A DNA stretch of 64,000 nucleotides from Escherichia coli (GTDB lineage Bacteria > Pseudomonadota > Gammaproteobacteria > Enterobacterales > Enterobacteriaceae), in assembly GCF_003334335.1 (NCBI RefSeq), contig NZ_QOWQ01000003.1, one strand, 5' to 3'. A model generated the notes under the pieces. It did not search any database and was not told the DNA's origin. It worked only from the letters and a program-made list of their open reading frames with translations. How positions within the stretch are numbered: position 1 is the first letter of the stretch; the number at the start of each line of letters is the position of its first letter. This document shows, piece by piece, positions 3,202 to 28,665 of this stretch. The translations under genes were made by a program, and so were the position numbers.

Positions 3202-6200
3202 ATGGCAGATAATCCAGACCCTTCATCGCTCCTGCCGGACGTGTTTTCACCGGCGCCCCGCGACTGGTTTCTTCGCGCCTTTAAACAGCCGACCGCTGTC
3301 CAGCCGCAAACCTGGCATGTGGCGGCGCGAAGCGAACATGCGCTGGTGATTGCACCGACCGGCTCCGGGAAAACGCTGGCAGCATTTCTCTACGCCCTCG
3401 ATCGGCTCTTCCGCGAAGGCGGCGAAGATACCCGCGAGGCGCATAAGCGTAAAACCTCACGCATCCTCTATATTTCACCGATAAAAGCCCTGGGCACCGA
3501 CGTTCAGCGCAACTTGCAGATCCCGTTGAAGGGTATTGCCGATGAACGGCGGCGGCGCGGCGAAACGGAAGTCAATCTTCGCGTAGGGATCCGTACTGGC
3601 GATACGCCTGCACAGGAACGCAGCAAACTCACCCGTAATCCGCCGGATATTCTGATCACCACACCCGAATCACTCTATCTGATGCTGACCTCCCGCGCGC
3701 GCGAAACGCTACGCGGCGTCGAAACGGTAATTATTGATGAAGTCCACGCGGTAGCGGGCAGTAAACGTGGTGCGCATCTGGCGTTAAGTCTGGAGCGGCT
3801 CGATGCGCTGCTCCACACCTCAGCACAGCGAATTGGCCTTTCTGCCACTGTGCGCTCAGCCAGCGATGTGGCAGCATTTCTTGGTGGCGATCGCCCGGTT
3901 ACGGTAGTCAACCCGCCCGCAATGCGCCATCCGCAGATACGAATTGTCGTACCGGTCGCCAATATGGATGATGTCTCATCGGTCGCCAGCGGCACCGGCG
4001 AAGACAGCCATGCCGGCCGGGAAGGCTCCATCTGGCCATATATTGAAACGGGTATCCTTGATGAAGTGTTGCGCCATCGCTCGACCATTGTCTTTACTAA
4101 TTCGCGGGGGCTGGCGGAAAAACTGACGGCACGATTAAATGAGCTTTACGCCGCACGCTTACAGCGTTCCCCGTCTATCGCCGTTGATGCGGCCCATTTC
4201 GAGTCGACCTCCGGCGCAACCTCTAACCGTGTACAAAGTAGCGACGTTTTTATTGCCCGCTCACACCACGGCTCCGTCTCTAAAGAACAACGAGCAATCA
4301 CCGAACAGGCGCTGAAATCGGGTGAATTACGCTGCGTGGTCGCAACCTCCAGTCTTGAACTGGGGATTGATATGGGCGCGGTGGATCTGGTGATTCAGGT
4401 GGCAACGCCGCTTTCTGTTGCCAGTGGGTTACAACGCATTGGTCGCGCCGGACATCAGGTTGGCGGTGTATCTAAAGGGCTGTTTTTCCCCCGTACCCGG
4501 CGTGATTTAGTCGATTCCGCAGTCATTGTAGAGTGTATGTTCGCAGGCAGGCTGGAAAACCTGACACCACCGCATAATCCTCTCGACGTCCTTGCGCAGC
4601 AAACCGTTGCCGCCGCGGCGATGGATGCATTACAGGTAGACGAATGGTACTCCCGCGTACGCCGTGCCGCACCGTGGAAAGATCTGCCAAGACGTGTTTT
4701 TGACGCCACGCTGGATATGCTTTCCGGGCGCTATCCCTCTGGCGATTTTTCTGCTTTTCGCCCCAAACTGGTCTGGAACAGGGAGACCGGGATATTGACC
4801 GCCCGACCTGGCGCTCAATTGTTGGCGGTTACCAGCGGCGGCACCATTCCGGATCGTGGCATGTATAGCGTGTTATTACCCGAAGGTGAAGAAAAGGCCG
4901 GTTCGCGGCGGGTGGGTGAACTGGATGAGGAGATGGTATATGAGTCGCGGGTGAACGACATTATCACTCTCGGCGCTACCTCATGGCGGATCCAACAAAT
5001 CACCCGCGATCAGGTGATTGTGACTCCTGCTCCGGGTCGTTCTGCCCGGCTCCCCTTCTGGCGTGGTGAAGGTAACGGACGTCCGGCTGAATTAGGCGAG
5101 ATGATCGGCGATTTTCTTCATTTGCTGGCGGATGGCGCGTTCTTTTCCGGGACTATTCCCCCGTGGCTGGCAGAAGAAAATACGATCGCCAATATTCAGG
5201 GGTTGATTGAGGAGCAGCGCAACGCGACGGGCATCGTTCCGGGGAGTCGCCATCTGGTCCTCGAACGGTGCCGTGATGAAATTGGTGACTGGCGTATTAT
5301 TTTGCACTCTCCCTATGGAAGACGGGTGCATGAACCCTGGGCGGTGGCGATTGCCGGGCGAATACATGCGCTATGGGGCGCTGACGCGTCGGTGGTCGCC
5401 AGTGATGACGGCATTGTTGCACGTATTCCTGACACCGATGGTAAATTGCCCGATGCCGCGATTTTTTTGTTTGAACCAGAAAAGTTGCTGCAAATTGTCC
5501 GCGAGGCGGTAGGCAGCTCGGCACTTTTCGCCGCCCGTTTTCGCGAATGCGCCGCGCGGGCATTATTAATGCCGGGGCGCACTCCGGGCCATCGCACCCC
5601 GCTTTGGCAACAACGGCTGCGCGCCAGTCAGTTGCTGGAAATCGCTCAGGGATATCCGGATTTTCCGGTCATTCTCGAAACCCTACGCGAATGTCTGCAA
5701 GATGTTTATGATCTTCCCGCACTGGAACGTTTGATGCGTCGCCTGAACGGTGGCGAAATTCAAATATCCGATGTAACGACCACTACGCCCTCGCCTTTCG
5801 CCACAAGTTTATTGTTCGGCTATGTCGCGGAATTTATGTACCAGAGCGACGCCCCGCTGGCAGAGCGCCGGGCATCCGTACTGTCGCTGGACAGCGAGTT
5901 ACTGCGCAATCTACTCGGACAGGTCGATCCGGGGGAATTACTCGACCCGCAGGTCATTCGCCAGGTGGAAGAAGAGTTGCAACGACTGGCTCCTGGCAGA
6001 AGAGCGAAAGGTGAAGAAGGATTGTTCGACCTGCTGCGCGAACTGGGGCCAATGACCGTTGAAGACCTGGCGCAACGGCATACAGGCAGCAGTGAAGAGG
6101 TTGCGTCGTATCTGGAAAATCTTCTTGCAGTAAAACGAATCTTCCCAGCGATGATTAGCGGACAGGAGCGTCTTGCCTGTATGGATGATGCCGCCAGGCT

Positions 6201-7818
6201 GCGTGATGCCCTCGGCGTACGACTACCAGAGTCATTGCCAGAGATTTATTTACATAGAGTCAGTTACCCGCTTCGCGACCTCTTTCTGCGCTATCTCCGG
6301 GCTCATGCTCTGGTCACGGCTGAACAACTGGCTCATGAGTTTAGTCTCGGTATTGCCATTGTCGAAGAGCAGCTTCAGCAACTGCGTGAACAGGGTCTGG
6401 TGATGAATCTGCAACAAGACATCTGGGTGAGCGATGAAGTATTTCGTCGTCTGCGTTTGCGCTCGCTGCAAGCCGCCAGAGAAGCGACGCGTCCCGTTGC
6501 AGCCACGACCTATGCGCGATTGCTGCTGGAACGTCAGGGCGTATTACCCGCCACCGATGGTAGCCCGGCGCTCTTTGCCTCAACATCGCCAGGCGTTTAT
6601 GAGGGCGTAGATGGCGTGATGCGGGTGATCGAACAGCTTGCCGGAGTCGGTTTACCCGCCTCACTCTGGGAAAGCCAGATCCTGCCTGCCCGCGTACGCG
6701 ACTATTCGTCAGAAATGCTCGATGAATTACTGGCAACCGGTGCGGTTATCTGGTCGGGGCAAAAAAAACTGGGTGAAGATGACGGCCTGGTGGCACTGCA
6801 TCTACAGGAATATGCTGCAGAATCGTTCACTCCCGCCGAAGCGGATCAGGCGAATCGTTCGGCGCTGCAACAAGCGATAGTCGCTGTTCTGGCTGACGGA
6901 GGAGCCTGGTTTGCACAACAAATCAGCCAACGGATACGCGACAAAATCGGCGAATCGGTTGATCTCTCTGCCCTGCAAGAGGCGTTATGGGCGCTGGTCT
7001 GGCAAGGCGTCATCACCAGCGACATTTGGGCACCGTTACGCGCCCTCACCCGCAGCAGTTCCAACGCACGCACCTCAACTCGCCGCAGTCACCGGGCTCG
7101 TCGTGGACGTCCTGTCTATGCGCAACCCGTCTCGCCGCGGGTATCTTACAACACACCAAATCTGGCTGGACGCTGGTCGTTATTGCAGGTGGAGCCACTA
7201 AACGATACCGAAAGGATGCTGGCGCTGGCGGAAAATATGCTCGACCGCTACGGCATCATCAGTCGTCAGGCGGTGATAGCCGAAAATATCCCTGGCGGGT
7301 TTCCATCGATGCAAACGCTTTGTCGAAGTATGGAAGACTCCGGGCGAATTATGCGAGGTCGTTTTGTAGAAGGTCTGGGTGGCGCGCAATTCGCTGAACG
7401 TCTGACTATTGACCGATTGCGCGATCTGGCGACACAAGCCACGCAAACGCGCCACTATACACCAGTGGCGCTCTCTGCCAACGATCCGGCTAATGTGTGG
7501 GGAAATCTTCTGCCCTGGCCTGCACATCCGGCAACGCTGGTTCCAACGCGTCGGGCGGGTGCGCTGGTGGTCGTTTCTGGCGGCAAATTGTTACTCTATC
7601 TGGCGCAAGGTGGCAAAAAAATGCTGGTCTGGCAGGAAAAAGAGGAATTACTCGCCCCAGAGGTTTTCCACGCGCTGACTACCGCACTGCGTCGCGAACC
7701 ACGGCTGCGCTTTACGCTAACAGAAGTGAATGATCTACCGGTCCGGCAAACGCCGATGTTTACGCTGCTGCGTGAGGCGGGATTTTCAAGTTCGCCACAA
7801 GGGCTGGATTGGGGATAG
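3202..7818 (+). CDS. lhr: Large ATP-dependent helicase Lhr (DEAD/DEAH box)
   Basis: ORF track 1538 aa; Walker A GSGKT, DEVH box; recognised as Lhr. Confidence 0.92.
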   Translation: MADNPDPSSLLPDVFSPAPRDWFLRAFKQPTAVQPQTWHVAARSEHALVIAPTGSGKTLAAFLYALDRLFREGGEDTREAHKRKTSRILYISPIKALGTDVQRNLQIPLKGIADERRRRGETEVNLRVGIRTGDTPAQERSKLTRNPPDILITTPESLYLMLTSRARETLRGVETVIIDEVHAVAGSKRGAHLALSLERLDALLHTSAQRIGLSATVRSASDVAAFLGGDRPVTVVNPPAMRHPQIRIVVPVANMDDVSSVASGTGEDSHAGREGSIWPYIETGILDEVLRHRSTIVFTNSRGLAEKLTARLNELYAARLQRSPSIAVDAAHFESTSGATSNRVQSSDVFIARSHHGSVSKEQRAITEQALKSGELRCVVATSSLELGIDMGAVDLVIQVATPLSVASGLQRIGRAGHQVGGVSKGLFFPRTRRDLVDSAVIVECMFAGRLENLTPPHNPLDVLAQQTVAAAAMDALQVDEWYSRVRRAAPWKDLPRRVFDATLDMLSGRYPSGDFSAFRPKLVWNRETGILTARPGAQLLAVTSGGTIPDRGMYSVLLPEGEEKAGSRRVGELDEEMVYESRVNDIITLGATSWRIQQITRDQVIVTPAPGRSARLPFWRGEGNGRPAELGEMIGDFLHLLADGAFFSGTIPPWLAEENTIANIQGLIEEQRNATGIVPGSRHLVLERCRDEIGDWRIILHSPYGRRVHEPWAVAIAGRIHALWGADASVVASDDGIVARIPDTDGKLPDAAIFLFEPEKLLQIVREAVGSSALFAARFRECAARALLMPGRTPGHRTPLWQQRLRASQLLEIAQGYPDFPVILETLRECLQDVYDLPALERLMRRLNGGEIQISDVTTTTPSPFATSLLFGYVAEFMYQSDAPLAERRASVLSLDSELLRNLLGQVDPGELLDPQVIRQVEEELQRLAPGRRAKGEEGLFDLLRELGPMTVEDLAQRHTGSSEEVASYLENLLAVKRIFPAMISGQERLACMDDAARLRDALGVRLPESLPEIYLHRVSYPLRDLFLRYLRAHALVTAEQLAHEFSLGIAIVEEQLQQLREQGLVMNLQQDIWVSDEVFRRLRLRSLQAAREATRPVAATTYARLLLERQGVLPATDGSPALFASTSPGVYEGVDGVMRVIEQLAGVGLPASLWESQILPARVRDYSSEMLDELLATGAVIWSGQKKLGEDDGLVALHLQEYAAESFTPAEADQANRSALQQAIVAVLADGGAWFAQQISQRIRDKIGESVDLSALQEALWALVWQGVITSDIWAPLRALTRSSSNARTSTRRSHRARRGRPVYAQPVSPRVSYNTPNLAGRWSLLQVEPLNDTERMLALAENMLDRYGIISRQAVIAENIPGGFPSMQTLCRSMEDSGRIMRGRFVEGLGGAQFAERLTIDRLRDLATQATQTRHYTPVALSANDPANVWGNLLPWPAHPATLVPTRRAGALVVVSGGKLLLYLAQGGKKMLVWQEKEELLAPEVFHALTTALRREPRLRFTLTEVNDLPVRQTPMFTLLREAGFSSSPQGLDWG

Positions 7819-7825
7819 AGAAAGG

Positions 7826-7856
7826 ACTGACGGATGCCCGTTCGCATCCGTCAGTA
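7826..7856. terminator. Bidirectional hairpin between convergent lhr and grxD
   Basis: Inverted repeat ACTGACGGATGC...GCATCCGTCAGT between the two stop codons. Confidence 0.5.
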
Positions 7857-7868
7857 TTGCAGGACGGA

Positions 7869-8216
7869 TTATTCCGCGTCCGGCTCTTCAGACTTGTATT
7901 TAGCGGCAGTTTCTTTGATCAGCTGCTGCAGTTCGCCACGCTGATACATTTCGATCACGATATCACAACCGCCGACCAGCTCGCCGTCAACCCACAGTTG
8001 CGGGAAGGTCGGCCAGTTAGCATATTTCGGCAGTTCCGCACGAATGTCCGGATTCTGCAGAATATCAACATAGGCAAAACGTTCGCCACATGCGGCAAGC
8101 GCCTGGACTGCCTGGGCAGAGAAACCGCAGCTCGGCAGTTTCGGTGAACCTTTCATGTACAGCAGGATCGGGTTTTCAGCAATCTGGCGTTGGATTTTTT
8201 CGATAGTGGTGCTCAT
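7869..8216 (-). CDS. grxD: Monothiol glutaredoxin Grx4
   Basis: ORF track 115 aa; CGFS active-site motif in translation. Confidence 0.92.
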   Translation of the reverse strand: MSTTIEKIQRQIAENPILLYMKGSPKLPSCGFSAQAVQALAACGERFAYVDILQNPDIRAELPKYANWPTFPQLWVDGELVGGCDIVIEMYQRGELQQLIKETAAKYKSEEPDAE

Positions 8217-8549
8217 TGTCTTGCTTCCTCAAACTTCTTTACGGCAGTAATCTGACATTGTAGCGGGTCAGTGCGGCATCGGAAAATAACATTTTCATCA
8301 CGCTTTTGCTATTTTATCCCTTTGCTCTATTTGTTGCATTTCAAATATTCGTTTCTTCTCTGATGCCGGCAAACTGGCGTATTTATAACCATTTTTAGCT
8401 TTCACTGCTGCATTTTTTTGCGCTCGCCAACGAAACGTATTTTTTAACAATAAAAGCTATTAACTTTCTCTTCTTCTATGCATTAGAATCATCAAGTTTT
8501 GTAAATCAGACGCAGGCATGATAGACCTGCCTTAACAGAGGGACGCTCA

Positions 8550-9365
8550 GTGGCGCGGATAAACCGTATTTCGATCACGCTCTGTGCTTTACTTTTTACC
8601 ACCCTGCCTTTAACGCCTATGGCCCATGCTTCAAAGCAAGCCAGGGAGAGTTCTGCTACCACTCATATCACCAAAAAAGCAGATAAAAAGAAAAGCACGG
8701 CAACCACCAAAAAGACCCAGAAAACAGCGAAAAAAGCCGCCAGTAAAAGTACGACCAAAAGCAAAACCGCTTCTTCCGTTAAAAAATCTTCCATTACCGC
8801 TTCTAAAAACGCCAAAACTCGCAGCAAACACGCCGTCAATAAAACGGCCTCAGCCAGCTTTACCGAAAAGTGTACCAAACGTAAGGGCTATAAATCGCAT
8901 TGTGTGAAAGTCAAAAATGCCGCGTCAGGAACTCTTGCCGACGCGCACAAAGCGAAGGTGCAAAAAGCTACGAAAGTGGCAATGAATAAACTGATGCAGC
9001 AAATTGGTAAGCCATATCGTTGGGGTGGCAGCTCACCGCGTACCGGTTTTGATTGCAGCGGCCTGGTTTATTACGCTTATAAAGATTTGGTGAAAATTCG
9101 TATTCCGCGTACGGCGAATGAAATGTATCACCTGCGTGATGCAGCGCCAATCGAACGTAGTGAACTGAAAAACGGCGACCTGGTCTTTTTCCGTACTCAG
9201 GGACGCGGCACAGCCGATCATGTCGGCGTGTATGTCGGCAACGGCAAATTTATTCAGTCACCGCGCACAGGTCAGGAAATTCAAATCACTTCTCTCAGTG
9301 AAGACTACTGGCAGCGCCACTATGTTGGCGCTCGTCGGGTAATGACCCCAAAAACACTTCGCTAA
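8550..9365 (+). CDS. mepH: NlpC/P60 peptidoglycan DD-endopeptidase MepH (YdhO)
   Basis: ORF track 271 aa; GTG start with SD AGAGGGA; signal peptide, basic K/T/S-rich linker, C-terminal NlpC/P60 domain (Cys...His). Confidence 0.88.
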   Translation: MARINRISITLCALLFTTLPLTPMAHASKQARESSATTHITKKADKKKSTATTKKTQKTAKKAASKSTTKSKTASSVKKSSITASKNAKTRSKHAVNKTASASFTEKCTKRKGYKSHCVKVKNAASGTLADAHKAKVQKATKVAMNKLMQQIGKPYRWGGSSPRTGFDCSGLVYYAYKDLVKIRIPRTANEMYHLRDAAPIERSELKNGDLVFFRTQGRGTADHVGVYVGNGKFIQSPRTGQEIQITSLSEDYWQRHYVGARRVMTPKTLR

Positions 9366-21318: not shown

Positions 21319-22923
21319 ATGAAAAAAATTGCTATTGTGGGTGCCGGGCCTACGGGGATCTACACCTTATTCTCGCTTCTACAGCAACAAACTCCACTTT
21401 CTATTTCTATCTTCGAGCAGGCTGACGAGGCCGGTGTCGGGATGCCATACAGTGATGAGGAAAACTCAAAAATGATGCTGGCAAATATTGCCAGTATTGA
21501 AATACCGCCGATTTATTGTACGTATCTCGAATGGCTACAAAAGCAAGAAGACAGCCATCTCCAGCGTTATGGCGTTAAAAAAGAAACCTTGCACGATCGT
21601 CAGTTTTTACCGCGAATTCTGCTGGGCGAATATTTCCGCGATCAATTTTTACGACTAGTAGACCAGGCACGACAGCAAAAATTTGCAGTGGCTGTTTATG
21701 AATCATGCCAGGTTACCGATCTGCAAATTACAAATGCTGGCGTCATGCTCGCTACAAATCAGGATTTACCCAGCGAGACGTTTGATTTAGCGGTGATCGC
21801 CACGGGTCACGTCTGGCCTGATGAAGAAGAAGCAACCCGAACGTATTTTCCCAGCCCGTGGTCAGGCCTGATGGAAGCAAAGGTCGATGCGTGTAACGTG
21901 GGTATTATGGGAACATCCTTGAGCGGACTGGATGCGGCAATGGCAGTGGCTATTCAGCATGGTTCGTTCATTGAAGATGATAAACAACACGTCGTTTTTC
22001 ACCGCGATAACGCAAGTGAAAAGCTAAATATCACGTTGTTGTCGCGCACGGGTATTTTACCCGAAGCCGATTTCTATTGCCCTATTCCCTACGAGCCCTT
22101 ACACATCGTCACCGATCAGGCATTAAATGCTGAGATTCAAAAAGGCGAAGAGGGCCTTTTGGATCGGGTATTTAGATTGATAGTAGAGGAAATCAAGTTT
22201 GCTGATCCAGACTGGAGTCAACGCATAGCCTTAGAGAGCCTGAATGTCGATTCCTTTGCTCAAGCCTGGTTTGCCGAGCGCAAACAACGCGACCCATTTG
22301 ACTGGGCAGAAAAAAATCTCCAGGAAGTCGAACGCAATAAACGAGAAAAACATACTGTTCCCTGGCGTTATGTCATTCTGCGCCTGCATGAAGCCGTACA
22401 GGAAATTGTTCCACATCTGAATGAACACGACCATAAACGGTTCAGTAAAGGCCTTGCCCGGGTTTTCATCGATAATTATGCGGCAATCCCTTCAGAGTCT
22501 ATTCGTCGCCTACTTGCCTTACGTGAAGCGGGAATCATTCATATTCTCGCCCTCGGTGAAGACTACAAAATGGAAATTAATGAGTCGCGCACCGTCCTGA
22601 AAACGGAAGACAACAGCTACTCGTTTGACGTTTTTATTGATGCCCGCGGACAACGTCCGCTTAAAGTGAAAGATATCCCTTTCCCTGGGCTACGCGAGCA
22701 ATTACAGAAAACAGGGGATGAAATCCCTGATGTTGGCGAAGATTATACGTTACAGCAACCCGAAGATATTCGTGGGCGCGTAGCGTTCGGCGCGTTGCCC
22801 TGGTTGATGCACGACCAGCCTTTCGTTCAGGGACTTACGGCATGTGCAGAAATTGGTGAGGCGATGGCTCGGGCGGTCGTAAAGCCTGCATCCCGTGCTC
22901 GTCGGCGTCTTTCGTTTGATTAA
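21319..22923 (+). CDS. ydhS: FAD/NAD(P)-binding protein YdhS
   Basis: ORF track 534 aa; N-terminal Rossmann motif IAIVGAGPTG. Confidence 0.87.
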   Translation: MKKIAIVGAGPTGIYTLFSLLQQQTPLSISIFEQADEAGVGMPYSDEENSKMMLANIASIEIPPIYCTYLEWLQKQEDSHLQRYGVKKETLHDRQFLPRILLGEYFRDQFLRLVDQARQQKFAVAVYESCQVTDLQITNAGVMLATNQDLPSETFDLAVIATGHVWPDEEEATRTYFPSPWSGLMEAKVDACNVGIMGTSLSGLDAAMAVAIQHGSFIEDDKQHVVFHRDNASEKLNITLLSRTGILPEADFYCPIPYEPLHIVTDQALNAEIQKGEEGLLDRVFRLIVEEIKFADPDWSQRIALESLNVDSFAQAWFAERKQRDPFDWAEKNLQEVERNKREKHTVPWRYVILRLHEAVQEIVPHLNEHDHKRFSKGLARVFIDNYAAIPSESIRRLLALREAGIIHILALGEDYKMEINESRTVLKTEDNSYSFDVFIDARGQRPLKVKDIPFPGLREQLQKTGDEIPDVGEDYTLQQPEDIRGRVAFGALPWLMHDQPFVQGLTACAEIGEAMARAVVKPASRARRRLSFD

Positions 22924-22934
22924 AGGTAAAGCTA

Positions 22935-23747
22935 TCAGCACTCAACAAACTGATGCTGTTCATTAAGACGATAGCGGACTCCGGCTCGAATATTGTTTTC
23001 ACCTTCAATGGCGACGGCGAAGCGAACTCTTTCGCCGTCATGATATGCCAGTGCGGCGCTTCCTCCTGGCCCGAGAATAATTGAGTCGACCACGCCCGTG
23101 CTCACTACCGTTGAATTTTCACCGCTGGCAATGATGTGTACATTGTCGCCGCTGTTGGCAATTCTGGCGTTTGCGCCAAAGCTGGCGATTTGCACCAGGT
23201 CACCATTACTGGCGACATGACACCGTTCACCCAATGTACAAACGCGTACTCGCATTCCGGTATTCGCAATCCGACTGCTATCTCCAGCGCTGCTTATCCG
23301 CGAAGAATTACCGGTTACAGCAACCCGTGCGCGTTCACCGGAGCTGCCAATGTGACTGTTAAAGCCGACACTTCCAATCCGCACGCTATAACCCATACTG
23401 GCAATTTGCGCGGCATACCCAGCGGTTGCGATTCTGGCGTTATCCTCACAACAGCCGATGCGAGCATGATCGTCGCTGCGGGCAAACTGACTGCAAAATG
23501 GTCTCTCTCCGGGGTCTGTGGCCAGTTTTTGCATAGAGGAAACTTCCTGATGCGCGAAGTTTTCATCCGCCAGCCATTTTTTCCACGCATACTCAACCAG
23601 ACTCTCCGCCCAGTCCGTATATCCTTCCTCAATCAGTGCATGATGAATATCGGCATAACTACCGCCGCGTGGGAAATGGCGCAGGAACCAGCGATACATC
23701 ACCGCTCCGATACGCCATTCTCGCAGGTCTGCTTGTGTAATGATCAT
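22935..23747 (-). CDS. ydhT: YdhT, last gene of ydhYVWXUT operon; contains about 15 tandem 9-residue repeats
   Basis: ORF track 270 aa; repeats xRIAS-xG-xx across residues ~86-220. Confidence 0.87.
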   Translation of the reverse strand: MIITQADLREWRIGAVMYRWFLRHFPRGGSYADIHHALIEEGYTDWAESLVEYAWKKWLADENFAHQEVSSMQKLATDPGERPFCSQFARSDDHARIGCCEDNARIATAGYAAQIASMGYSVRIGSVGFNSHIGSSGERARVAVTGNSSRISSAGDSSRIANTGMRVRVCTLGERCHVASNGDLVQIASFGANARIANSGDNVHIIASGENSTVVSTGVVDSIILGPGGSAALAYHDGERVRFAVAIEGENNIRAGVRYRLNEQHQFVEC

Positions 23748-23750
23748 TCG

Positions 23751-24536
23751 TTAGTGCCGGTGATAGCCATCGACCATGCTTTTAAAGGTTTCGTGTGGCG
23801 TACGCCCCGTGGTGCAAAGATAAAGATGACCGAAGATAAAAAAGAGGCTTATAAATGCCAGAGCAAAATGTGTCTGCAATAACCAGTATCTTACGCCAGG
23901 AAACACATCTCCCACGGCTTGCGGATAGAGACACAGCAGCCCCGTCAATAGTAACAACGGCAGCAATCCATACATGACACCAACATAGGCGACCTGCTGT
24001 AAGGGATTAAATTTAGACTGGGTTGTTGCCGGGAAAGGATGTTCTTCCCCCTGCATAATGCCAAACAAATAAAATCGCGTTTGTTTTGCCGCTCGTTCCA
24101 GCCACCCCTGACGACGAATGCGATAGTGGTGACCATTATCCCCAACGGCATTGATCAGCACAAAGCCGAGCCAGCATGCCAGTAACAAAAATCCGCAAAC
24201 TTCATGCACCGCAACCAGACTTTTAACCGCAGTTGCGCCCACCATCGCAAAGTGATTTATCAGCCCACTGGCCAGCAACAATACAAAGAGTAACGCATTC
24301 GACCAGTGCCATAATCTGACCGCTTTGCTGTAAAGATAAATCTTCTCACCATGATCGGTGGCTGATTTCTTCACGCCACGAGCACGAAGCAAGGCATGCA
24401 GCCCCAGCACCAACCACATCCCAACCAGCAATACTCCGGCAATGATCAACCACACCGGCCAAAATTCGGGAGTGAACTGTGGCACATAGTTCGCTAACTG
24501 GCTCTGAAACTGTTCAGCATGTTGCGACGGGTTCAT
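23751..24536 (-). CDS. ydhU: PhsC/NrfD-like membrane cytochrome b subunit YdhU
   Basis: ORF track 261 aa; several TM helices with conserved His; 4-bp overlap with ydhX. Confidence 0.87.
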   Translation of the reverse strand: MNPSQHAEQFQSQLANYVPQFTPEFWPVWLIIAGVLLVGMWLVLGLHALLRARGVKKSATDHGEKIYLYSKAVRLWHWSNALLFVLLLASGLINHFAMVGATAVKSLVAVHEVCGFLLLACWLGFVLINAVGDNGHHYRIRRQGWLERAAKQTRFYLFGIMQGEEHPFPATTQSKFNPLQQVAYVGVMYGLLPLLLLTGLLCLYPQAVGDVFPGVRYWLLQTHFALAFISLFFIFGHLYLCTTGRTPHETFKSMVDGYHRH

Positions 24537-25201
24537 ACATTTTCCTTTTTAATCAAATGTTGACCGAACCGGCGATACAGATGCGGTTTCCCGGCACCAG
24601 GTAGCTGATATTGATAGTATTTATTTTGCTGCAACCACGCCTGAATTTCTGGGCTATCTTCGCGACCAAAGATCAATGCGTGTTCCGGGCAGGCGCTGAC
24701 GCAAATGGGCGGAAAGCCTTTTGCCAGTCGGGACTCAGCGCAGAAATCACATTTATCTGCCACTTTAGTGACAGGGTTAAGGTAGCGAACCTGGTACGGA
24801 CAAGCGCCAATGCAATAACTGCAGCCGATGCACTGCGATTTTTCTACCCGCACGATCCCCTGCTCATCACGCCACGACGCCCCCGTCGGGCAAACGTCGA
24901 TGCACGGAGCATCTTCGCAGTGCTGACATGACTGGCGAAAAAAGTGATACTGCGTTTCGTTGTCGTTATCGGTGACTGGAATGTGTGCTATCGATAAACG
25001 GCTTCCCTGAGCGGGGACGTGGTTAGTTTTACGGCATGCGCGGGCGCAAATATTACAGCCATTGCACCGTGACTCGTCATGAATCATGGCATACCGAACT
25101 TCCTTTTCTTGCCTCGTGTTCGCTAACAGAGAAGACGCAGAACCAGTAAAAAAGATTACTGTTCCCATCCCCAGAACAAATTTGCGTCGAGTGAAGGACA
25201 T
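24533..25201 (-). CDS. ydhX: Ferredoxin-like 4Fe-4S protein YdhX with twin-arginine signal
   Basis: Start chosen at MSFTRRKFVLG (Tat motif) with upstream SD; four CxxCxxCxxxCP-type cysteine clusters; ORF track gives a longer upstream extension. Confidence 0.85.
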   Translation of the reverse strand: MSFTRRKFVLGMGTVIFFTGSASSLLANTRQEKEVRYAMIHDESRCNGCNICARACRKTNHVPAQGSRLSIAHIPVTDNDNETQYHFFRQSCQHCEDAPCIDVCPTGASWRDEQGIVRVEKSQCIGCSYCIGACPYQVRYLNPVTKVADKCDFCAESRLAKGFPPICVSACPEHALIFGREDSPEIQAWLQQNKYYQYQLPGAGKPHLYRRFGQHLIKKENV

Positions 25202-25264
25202 CTGATTATCCCCTAATGCAGTGGCTGCAACTGTCCACCCTATCCATGACATCTCCCTGAAATT

Positions 25265-25912
25265 TCAGGGGTTCTGAAACTGCTCTACCTCGAACCATTC
25301 GCATAAGCCATAAGCCTTGCCATAGGTCATAAATCGCTCGCTAAACAAGTACAACACCGCCGTCGATGACTCCACCTGCCGTATATCGGCATATTCAGGT
25401 GCAACATCCATCGCGGCGATCGCGGCTTCAATCTGCGCTTCCTGGAAGTAATATGGCGCTTGCATCAGCATGGCGACTTTGTAAGGACGAGGATACGTCT
25501 GGCACTCAAAACGAACGGCGTGTGCAATGGCGCGACAAATGTCCTGCTCCACAACTTGCAAAGACATCGCCGCGTAGTTTTCACTCATGGCCTGCGTTGA
25601 GTAATAGTAATCATCCTTGCTTCCCGTCAAACAAGCGATATCCGCGTAGTCTCCGTTCTGCTTAATGCTTTCCAGCAAAACTGACAGTTCCTCTTCTGCA
25701 ACCAAATAGGGTGGCGAGAGAAACACGGCGCGCGCCACCAGCTGCCCAGCCGCAGAATGCTGGCGAATGAACTCAGCCAGGATTTCAGCAGGTTCTGGTT
25801 CGGTTACCGTATCAACGGGGTGACGCATCCCCTGCAACCATTGCCGCTTCGCCTCGTCAACTTCGCTGACTTTCGCTAACGGCAATTCATCCTGATGGTT
25901 CATCTTACCCAT
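25265..25912 (-). CDS. ydhW: YdhW, unknown function
   Basis: ORF track 215 aa; operon position between ydhV and ydhX. Confidence 0.85.
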   Translation of the reverse strand: MGKMNHQDELPLAKVSEVDEAKRQWLQGMRHPVDTVTEPEPAEILAEFIRQHSAAGQLVARAVFLSPPYLVAEEELSVLLESIKQNGDYADIACLTGSKDDYYYSTQAMSENYAAMSLQVVEQDICRAIAHAVRFECQTYPRPYKVAMLMQAPYYFQEAQIEAAIAAMDVAPEYADIRQVESSTAVLYLFSERFMTYGKAYGLCEWFEVEQFQNP

Positions 25913-25915
25913 TCC

Positions 25916-28665
<2,750 letters not shown>

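Follow-up and report, generated by a model that had tools for sequence, protein, structure and literature searches.

YdhT, the last gene product of the Escherichia coli ydhYVWXUT operon: a predicted nonapeptide beta-solenoid from a largely phage-borne family

The stretch of DNA analyzed here (hereinafter, the window) consists of 64,000 nucleotides of the E. coli contig NZ_QOWQ01000003.1 (RefSeq assembly GCF_003334335.1) and includes the 3' end of the ydhYVWXUT operon, with the genes ydhV, W, X, U and T following one another on the minus strand. The last of these, ydhT (22935..23747, minus; an open reading frame (ORF) of 270 codons, with the stop codon at 22935-22937), encodes a protein that contains a strictly periodic array of 9-residue units, is predicted with high confidence to form a beta-solenoid and, in all likelihood, is related to a large family that is otherwise borne by phages. 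In the genomes compared, YdhT is a lineage-specific add-on of the operon and not one of its core subunits. To our knowledge, E. coli has no AOR/WOR-type pyranopterin enzyme other than that encoded by ydhYVWXUT.

The gene, the operon and, as a structural kind, beta-solenoids of short Gly-containing repeats are already known. YdhT is listed as one of the gene products of the ydhYVWXUT operon of a Class V tungsten/molybdenum oxidoreductase (WOR41; E. coli YdhV/YdhY), a class for which neither a substrate nor a purified holoenzyme is known (PMC13328260). The operon is given as FNR-regulated in PMC10845959, citing Partridge 2008, and the papers that cite Reschke 2019 credit it with the identification of YdhV as a bis-Mo-MPT enzyme. 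The repeats, fold or function of YdhT are described in none of the searchable literature. The synthetic-lethal entry 'ydhT' in PMC5120140 was rejected as a typo for yhdT. The 270-aa product of the window is the NCBIfam protein NF007410 ('protein YdhT'; 489.7 bits against the cut-off of 300, with residues 2-270 covered) and is 99% identical to the representative of a cluster of 6294 member sequences (P0001); the N-terminal domain YdhT_N (PF27195) is precomputed for this cluster and for all YdhT orthologs.

A strict nonapeptide repeat in YdhT

Positions 23088-23492 of the window (minus strand) encode exactly residues 86-220 of YdhT, the segment for which a reading made from the sequence only had proposed about 15 tandem 9-residue units. 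The periodicity of this segment was quantified by autocorrelation: BLOSUM62 scores were averaged over all residue pairs separated by a given lag, with z computed against 500 shuffles. The z values are 12.8, 10.8, 10.7, 9.8 and 9.6 at lags 9, 18, 27, 36 and 45, respectively, and at most 1.1 at all other lags, so the peaks lie solely at multiples of 9 and the possibility that there is no periodicity is not the case. The repeat contains a series of 13 successive Gly residues spaced exactly 9 apart (residues 110, 119, 128 ... 218), which occupy unit position 7. These glycines hardly vary when YdhT orthologs and distant relatives, 59 sequences in all, are aligned (alignment A1). The position table yields the unit [ASV]-[RHQ]-[IV]-[AG]-[STN]-x-G-x-x and bears out the pattern x-[RHQ]-[IV]-[AG]-[ST]-x-G-x-x of the sequence-only reading.

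The count of about 15 units resolves into 13 canonical, one half-canonical and one degenerate unit, each with a strand in the AlphaFold2 (AF2) model described below. The canonical units (residues 104-220; 23088..23438, minus), delineated by the Gly periodicity, the position table and the AF2 strands, would form the core of the predicted solenoid. The two units that precede them (residues 86-103; 23439..23492, minus) are in register with the array, with AF2 strands at residues 87-90 and 96-99: the degenerate unit SQFARSDDH (residues 86-94) lacks the position-7 Gly, and the half-canonical unit ARIGCCEDN (residues 95-103) retains the R-I-G start, with the position-7 Gly replaced by Glu.

At the DNA level, the signal is much less pronounced. 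Identity at lag 27 is 45% vs 29% in codon shuffles (z = 7.1), with a value of 32% for third codon positions; the best unit pair shows 63% DNA identity, and Tandem Repeats Finder detected no 27-bp array. The weak 27-bp signal together with this null result implies an old, protein-level repeat rather than a recent DNA duplication. Accordingly, of the previously proposed 27-bp periodicity, the strict 9-residue period of the protein stands, whereas the nucleotide counterpart is weak. A super-period of 18 residues is not seen in the YdhT sequence, where unit identity is 0.36 at lag 1 vs 0.33 at lag 2, and is present in only ∼21% of the family members.

Predicted fold and domain architecture

The AF2 model of YdhT, built from alignment A1, has a mean predicted local distance difference test (pLDDT) score of 94.4 and a predicted template modeling (pTM) score of 0.90, and all five models score at least 89.8. 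A second AF2 run with another alignment produced the same elements, with pLDDT of 85-98 over the repeats. In the model, residues 1-85 (23493..23747, minus) comprise the five-helix YdhT_N domain and a linker: the helices span residues 5-10, 15-24, 31-40, 44-58 and 62-77 (pLDDT 94-97), and the linker, residues 78-90, is predicted with pLDDT of 71-83. The residues F25, P26, G28 and L50 of this domain are invariant across 21 diverse YdhT_N domains. Residues 87-216 contain one predicted beta strand per nonapeptide unit, beginning at unit position 2, and the strands are alternately longer and shorter (7/4/7/4/5/4/5/4/5/4...). The array is followed by a conserved C-terminal beta domain (residues 221-270; 22938..23087, minus), supported by the AF2 model, the alignment, the selection analysis and the match to the phage protein family phrog_4433 (see below), which is predicted to cap the solenoid. 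Its strands lie at residues 220-225, 230-236, 241-247, 258-261 and 267-269 (pLDDT 97-98), and D237, G249 and Y259 are nearly invariant in the 59 aligned sequences.

On the strength of this confident model with one strand per unit, residues 86-220 are very likely to adopt a beta-solenoid fold, as the sequence-only reading had anticipated; when YdhT was modeled alone, a repeat solenoid was obtained and a non-solenoid fold was not seen. We infer two units (18 residues) per coil and about seven coils, in part from the alternation of the strands, and the handedness of the predicted solenoid likewise. A preference for even unit numbers, that is, whole coils, is not seen: unit counts among the orthologs are 8 and 13-17, and the units lost in natural deletions number 8, 5 or 2.

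No signal peptide or long apolar run was detected in YdhT, and no enzyme family match was found in Pfam, NCBIfam, PDB or PADLOC. The scan of YdhT against a Pfam-A library older than PF27195 produced nothing significant (best match DUF6876, E = 0.16), and the Pfam copy searched contains no repeat model for the nonapeptide array of this family. PDB searches with the YdhT sequence, with a full-length profile and with separate profiles for the N- and C-domains revealed no solved structure of any relative. The match of the N-domain profile to designer pentatricopeptide repeat (PPR) proteins (E = 3e-8) was rejected as an artefact, being the sum of 11 repeats with 1-3 bits each; with a per-domain i-Evalue of ∼1e3, it hints at most at a PPR- or tetratricopeptide repeat-like helical hairpin. 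Structure searches of AFDB50 and BFVD retrieved exclusively uncharacterized members of the YdhT family itself, some of which carry misleading names, such as 'Hemolysin IA', 'Collagen triple helix repeat', 'collagen-like protein' and 'Ice nucleation protein'.

Comparison with named repeat classes

If taken at face value, these database names would make YdhT an RTX-type, Ca-dependent beta-roll, or else a collagen-like or ice-nucleation repeat, a reading that can hardly be maintained and, as far as motifs are concerned, is already refuted. The RTX consensus is GGXGXDXUX (PMC2174480). The GGxGxD turn is absent from YdhT and from 50 extracted ORFs of YdhT homologs, is not found twice in any of 194 family proteins, and neither YdhT nor the aligned relatives have a HemolysinCabind match in Pfam; given the absence of this turn, YdhT would have no Ca site. 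YdhT further differs from the RTX/serralysin beta-roll in that its strands are longer, each unit has only one Gly, and the protein is presumably cytoplasmic rather than secreted; the presumed location speaks against this reading as a whole. Gly recurs at every 9th residue, not at every 3rd as collagen would require, there is no run of four or more G-X-Y triplets, and the Pfam Collagen model gives only sub-threshold matches, in two YdhT relatives (best i-Evalue 4.5e-3). Ice-nucleation repeats have a periodicity of 8, 16 or 48 residues, but in YdhT lag 8 gives z = -3.3 and lag 16 gives z = -0.5, and there is no Pfam match.

Other classes fare no better. Pentapeptide and hexapeptide repeats (left-handed beta-helix) were rejected, with z of -1.6 at lag 5 and of 0.5 at both lag 6 and lag 12 and with null Pfam results; no Pfam match to bactofilin (PF04519) or Curlin_rpt was obtained for YdhT or its relatives. 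Curlin repeats are ∼19-23 residues long, contain Gln/Asn ladders and belong to secreted, polymerizing proteins. By comparison with the curli subunit CsgA, a strand-turn-strand solenoid, a coil of YdhT would consist of 18 residues from two equivalent 9-mers, the ends of the rod are predicted to be capped, and there is no signal peptide. The Ca-dependent antifreeze beta-helix of Marinomonas primoryensis (3p4g), an extracellular, Ca-bound segment of a giant adhesin, is just 10% identical to YdhT in sequence. The idea that YdhT is a DNA mimic was rejected because the family is not strongly acidic: the net charge of the repeat region is +4 in E. coli, with a family median of +2, and the median isoelectric point of the family is 6.1. 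Judging by motif, the YdhT nonapeptide class fails to conform to any of the named repeat families tested.

A large, mostly phage-borne family

When 1.84 billion cluster representatives (clusters at 50% identity) were searched exhaustively with HMMER, at least 611 were retrieved at E<=1e-3; the stricter thresholds of E<=1e-10 and E<=1e-30 gave 210 and 27, respectively. Unit spacing is exactly 9 in nearly all of the 150 representatives listed, with 7-22 units (median 14) and the consensus [AS]-[QRK]-[IL]-[AG]-S-S-G-[DYN]-x. The array is always followed by a common C-terminal domain with the consensus G.GG..ALAY.DG.R.RF....GENGI......Y.L.....FVE. The N-terminal heads vary and include YdhT_N, DUF7666, phrog_18079, and a DarG-like macrodomain combined with phrog_18079. 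The DUF7666 head is found in 20 of the 59 aligned relatives and has no match in YdhT. Residues 100-270 of YdhT match positions 154-310 of phrog_4433 (E = 1.7e-6), with other family members reaching E = 1e-59, and several members, including P0113 and P0129, match phrog_27197. The DUF7666 proteins, phrog_4433 and phrog_18079 share with YdhT the array and the C-terminal domain, also come up as Foldseek matches, and are true homologs. The DUF7666 proteins differ from YdhT in the N-terminal domain, in the homogenized arrays (∼65% unit identity vs 34%) and in the location in phage early regions.

All sampled contexts of the members outside the operon are phage early or accessory regions. The gene product gp55 of Edwardsiella phage GF-2 is 34-36% identical to YdhT over the full length, the N-domain included; its gene directly follows an N-like antiterminator and precedes CIII and Erf. 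In the Komagataeibacter phage phiKX1, 'ydhT' is located after an antirepressor. A YdhT_N-type member resides in a 38-kb metagenomic contig with YqaJ, RusA and GapR genes, a DUF7666-type member lies amid HNH, helix-turn-helix and Tad2-like genes, and the metagenomic or genomic contigs of both types are full of small early-type genes. Taken together, YdhT is likely to be related to this large, otherwise phage-borne family.

In two relatives, P0081 and P0089, an N-terminal DarG-like macrodomain precedes the phrog_18079 head, to which the nonapeptide array and then the C-domain are joined; the macrodomain of P0089 matches the PADLOC model PDLC02990 (E = 1.9e-20) and also phrog_335, annotated as 'phosphatase'. 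These proteins could be phage anti-DarT counter-defence proteins built on the nonapeptide scaffold. A ydhT that is 98.9% identical is present at 18751-19560 of CP025887.1 ('Escherichia phage 503046', 23 kb, unannotated), and this entry was given no weight as a phage context.

The chromosomal branch: synteny and phyletic distribution

A scan of the genome collection for YdhV yielded 70 loci, which were then searched by tblastn with five E. coli Ydh proteins. In ∼45 Enterobacterales loci, ydhT directly follows ydhU as the last gene of the operon; the ydhU-ydhT pair is found in Escherichia, Citrobacter, Leminorella, Limnobaculum, Budvicia, Proteus, Symbiopectobacterium, Serratia and Brenneria. 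In the window, the ydhT ATG is 3 nt downstream of the ydhU stop codon. Edwardsiella, the one exception among the enterobacterial loci examined, lacks ydhU, and there ydhT directly follows ydhX. Across the 70 loci, ydhX is present wherever ydhT is present. Conversely, none of the ∼25 ydhV loci of Firmicutes, Fusobacteria and Desulfobacterota contains ydhT, ydhU or a downstream YdhX-type subunit. In these non-enterobacterial loci, YdhV is 47-59% identical and ydhW is kept after ydhV, as is the case in nearly all loci with a full-length ydhV, those without ydhT included. Thus, ydhT is not among the conserved core genes of the Class V WOR operons but a lineage-specific addition to them. It also encodes a fast-diverging protein: between Proteus and E. 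coli, identity is 35% for YdhT, 42% for YdhW and 80% for YdhV.

Two loci deserve separate mention. In the Edwardsiella tarda locus L003 (from CP100802.1), the genes ydhY-V-W-X-T (3690-8954 of the locus) have as their neighbor a convergent nap operon, one of whose products is a NapC-type cytochrome. Citrobacter sp. NCU1 has two ydh operons (L024 and L042), and in L024 (14304-15050), ydhT ends after 38 codons and is followed by apparent transposase- and integrase-like ORF fragments, which suggests that one ydhT copy was lost through insertion of a mobile element.

Selection and evolution of the array

Within Escherichia, the ratio of nonsynonymous to synonymous substitution rates (dN/dS) in ydhT is 0.05-0.10 overall, 0.03-0.15 in the repeats and at most 0.04 in the C-domain, the most constrained part of the protein. 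The units of YdhT are only 34% identical to each other, and the median over 45 operon orthologs is 32%. When E. coli is compared with Citrobacter, orthologous units are 68% identical but non-orthologous units only 34%, so that each unit is conserved individually. In contrast, phage-type arrays have a median unit identity of 65%, with 70% in GF-2. Hence the chromosomal arrays are frozen, whereas the phage arrays are homogenized.

Freezing does not extend to the number of units, which ranges from 8 to 17 among the orthologs, with natural in-frame variants that lack 8, 5 or 2 whole units. In an evolved line of Serratia symbiotica, the only change reported for 'ydhT_1', a gene of 1413 nt, is a 54-bp in-frame deletion (PMC12505973); this length amounts to precisely two nonapeptide units (one coil in the prediction) and is compatible with slippage between units.

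Possible roles of YdhT

The explanation that best accommodates these observations is that YdhT is a capped nonapeptide rod that was domesticated and became an adaptor for the Ydh module; for this explanation as a whole, the chances appear evenly balanced. Under this model, YdhT would be a soluble cytoplasmic protein of three parts, the helical YdhT_N domain, a rod of about 15 units and, at the C terminus, a small beta cap. Each unit would contribute a short strand (positions 2-5, with Ile/Val at position 3 buried) and a tight turn around the Gly at position 7, and the units would pair to give the coils of a parallel beta-solenoid, flat and with two sheets, similar to curlin or to the RTX beta-roll but lacking the Ca-binding motif. 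Such a rod, devoid of a recognizable catalytic site, could act as a rigid scaffold or adaptor. A partner would bind to its ladders of exposed side chains (Arg/His/Gln at position 2; Asp/Asn/Tyr/Glu at position 8), to the units, each conserved in its own right, and to the domains at the two ends. YdhT would then represent the chromosomal, 'frozen' branch of a family otherwise found in phage early regions, fixed in Enterobacterales, with translational coupling, at the end of the FNR-regulated ydhYVWXUT operon, and might serve in the assembly, maturation or regulation of the YdhX/YdhU electron-transfer module, which is specific to enterobacteria, and not in catalysis. Because ydhT is found only where there is a YdhX exported by the twin-arginine translocation (Tat) pathway, usually along with the cytochrome b YdhU, a role in the X/U branch is the most economical guess, and both the scaffold or adaptor function and the link to YdhX/YdhU are put forward in this conditional sense.

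Several considerations weigh against this explanation. The phage relatives that contain YdhT_N have no Ydh enzyme, so that the ancestral function cannot be Ydh-specific. The joint occurrence of ydhT with ydhX and ydhU is confounded by taxonomy, all positive loci being from Enterobacterales, and the variation in unit number from 8 to 17 argues against a precisely sized binding surface. The solenoid fold itself is a prediction, by a method known to be generous with repeats. No partner of YdhT was identified in the one co-prediction that was tried, with YdhX: the AF2 model of a YdhT-(G4S)6-YdhX fusion, for which the alignment consisted of 13 paired orthologs and unpaired YdhT relatives and the Tat signal peptide was included, has a pTM of 0.54 with the YdhX half unfolded (pLDDT 22-49, ∼30) and is not evidence against the interaction. 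Given the taxonomic confound, the phage relatives without the Ydh enzyme and the uninformative fusion model, a role of YdhT in the assembly or function of the Ydh enzyme can be suggested only tentatively. A more explicit scenario, which must be considered speculative and, on balance, doubtful, is that a widespread phage early module consisting of a variable head, a solenoid stalk and a conserved cap, which phages would direct against host targets, was captured once, in an ancestor of Enterobacterales. It would then have become frozen and taken on a new, dedicated role in the cytoplasm, the assembly or regulation of the YdhX/YdhU branch of the molybdo/tungsto-enzyme, which faces the periplasm.

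The principal alternative is that YdhT is a captured phage gene unrelated to the oxidoreductase, which uses the 3' end of the operon for expression only and might be involved, for example, in phage exclusion, be a remnant of counter-defence, or bind some general target in the host. The full-length relatives in phage early regions, similar to YdhT across the N-domain as well, fit this possibility, as do the other family members that have a DarG-like macrodomain head or lie near a Tad2-like gene, and the absence of ydhT from all non-enterobacterial ydhV loci examined; a machine-learning study also lists the ydhT gene cluster among the predictors of infection by one phage (PMC12579225), which is weak evidence. 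However, a passenger gene would not be expected to keep its close-packed or translationally coupled terminal position in at least 10 genera despite YdhT identity of only ∼35%, to be under strong purifying selection, or to persist in Edwardsiella despite the loss of ydhU. Furthermore, the units of YdhT are frozen and individually conserved, unlike those of the homogenized phage arrays, and PADLOC assigns YdhT to none of its defence families, so this alternative appears rather unlikely. Two other possibilities concern the rod itself. The solenoid could self-associate into a filament or fibre, similar to curli or bactofilin, and form a polymeric cytoskeletal or amyloid-like element, but both ends of the rod are capped by globular domains that are confidently predicted (pLDDT 94-98), YdhT has neither a Curlin_rpt or bactofilin match in Pfam nor a secretion signal, and the array length, which is fixed within each species, better suits a monomeric rod; such a filament is improbable. 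Still less probable is a cofactor-assembly scaffold that would hold a metal or an Fe-S cluster for the Fe-S centres of YdhY and YdhX, on the model of the SufB/SufD beta-helix core.

Gene neighborhood

The genes upstream of ydhT on the minus strand are those of the operon. The immediate neighbor is ydhU (23751..24536), an ORF for a cytochrome b-type membrane subunit, with PF01292 (Ni_hydr_CYTB) in the orthologs. It is preceded by ydhX (24533..25201), which encodes a Tat-signal 4Fe-4S ferredoxin-type subunit with a twin-arginine motif conserved in the orthologs. The ORF list has ydhX at 24533-25252, beginning 17 codons upstream of MSFTRRKF; because this twin-arginine start is used by all orthologs, it was taken as the start here, and the true start is probably 25201. 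Further upstream are the ORFs of ydhW (25265..25912; PF27264, YdhW_C) and ydhV (25916..28018), the latter encoding the AOR/WOR-family pyranopterin subunit (PF02730 and PF01314 in the orthologs; PMC13328260).

Downstream, ydhT (22935-23747, minus) and ydhS (21319-22923, plus) are convergent, with 11 bp between the stop codons; the sole terminator-like hairpin on the ydhT strand (22729-22712) lies ∼200 bp inside ydhS. The ydhS-ydhT pair is among the candidate excludons, that is, cases of overlapping convergent transcription, of PMC12288877. Two adjacent tRNA-Val(GAC) genes (20623-20780, plus) are located between the ORFs 19059-20315 (418 aa) and 20888-21193 (101 aa). The 418-aa ORF (minus) is rich in short stretches of Gly, Val and Thr that look like strands, such as GGRAENTVVTGAGWLKVATGG and GGVFMLAGKASDTLLAGG, and resembles another beta-helical, autotransporter-passenger-like protein, without an obvious outer-membrane barrel.

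Implications

The link of YdhT to a phage-associated family, the contrast between frozen and homogenized arrays, and the status of YdhT as a lineage-specific add-on are what the present analysis contributes beyond the sequence-only reading. For reconstitution of the enzyme, this analysis separates the core subunits Y, V and W from the lineage add-ons X, U and T. It also defines a large repeat family, with at least 611 clusters at 50% identity, that is abundant in phage early regions and sometimes is combined with a DarG-like macrodomain, which makes the nonapeptide array a candidate scaffold for host-targeting phage proteins. The frozen chromosomal arrays, set against the homogenized arrays of the phages, provide a clean example of how a repeat protein changes after domestication.

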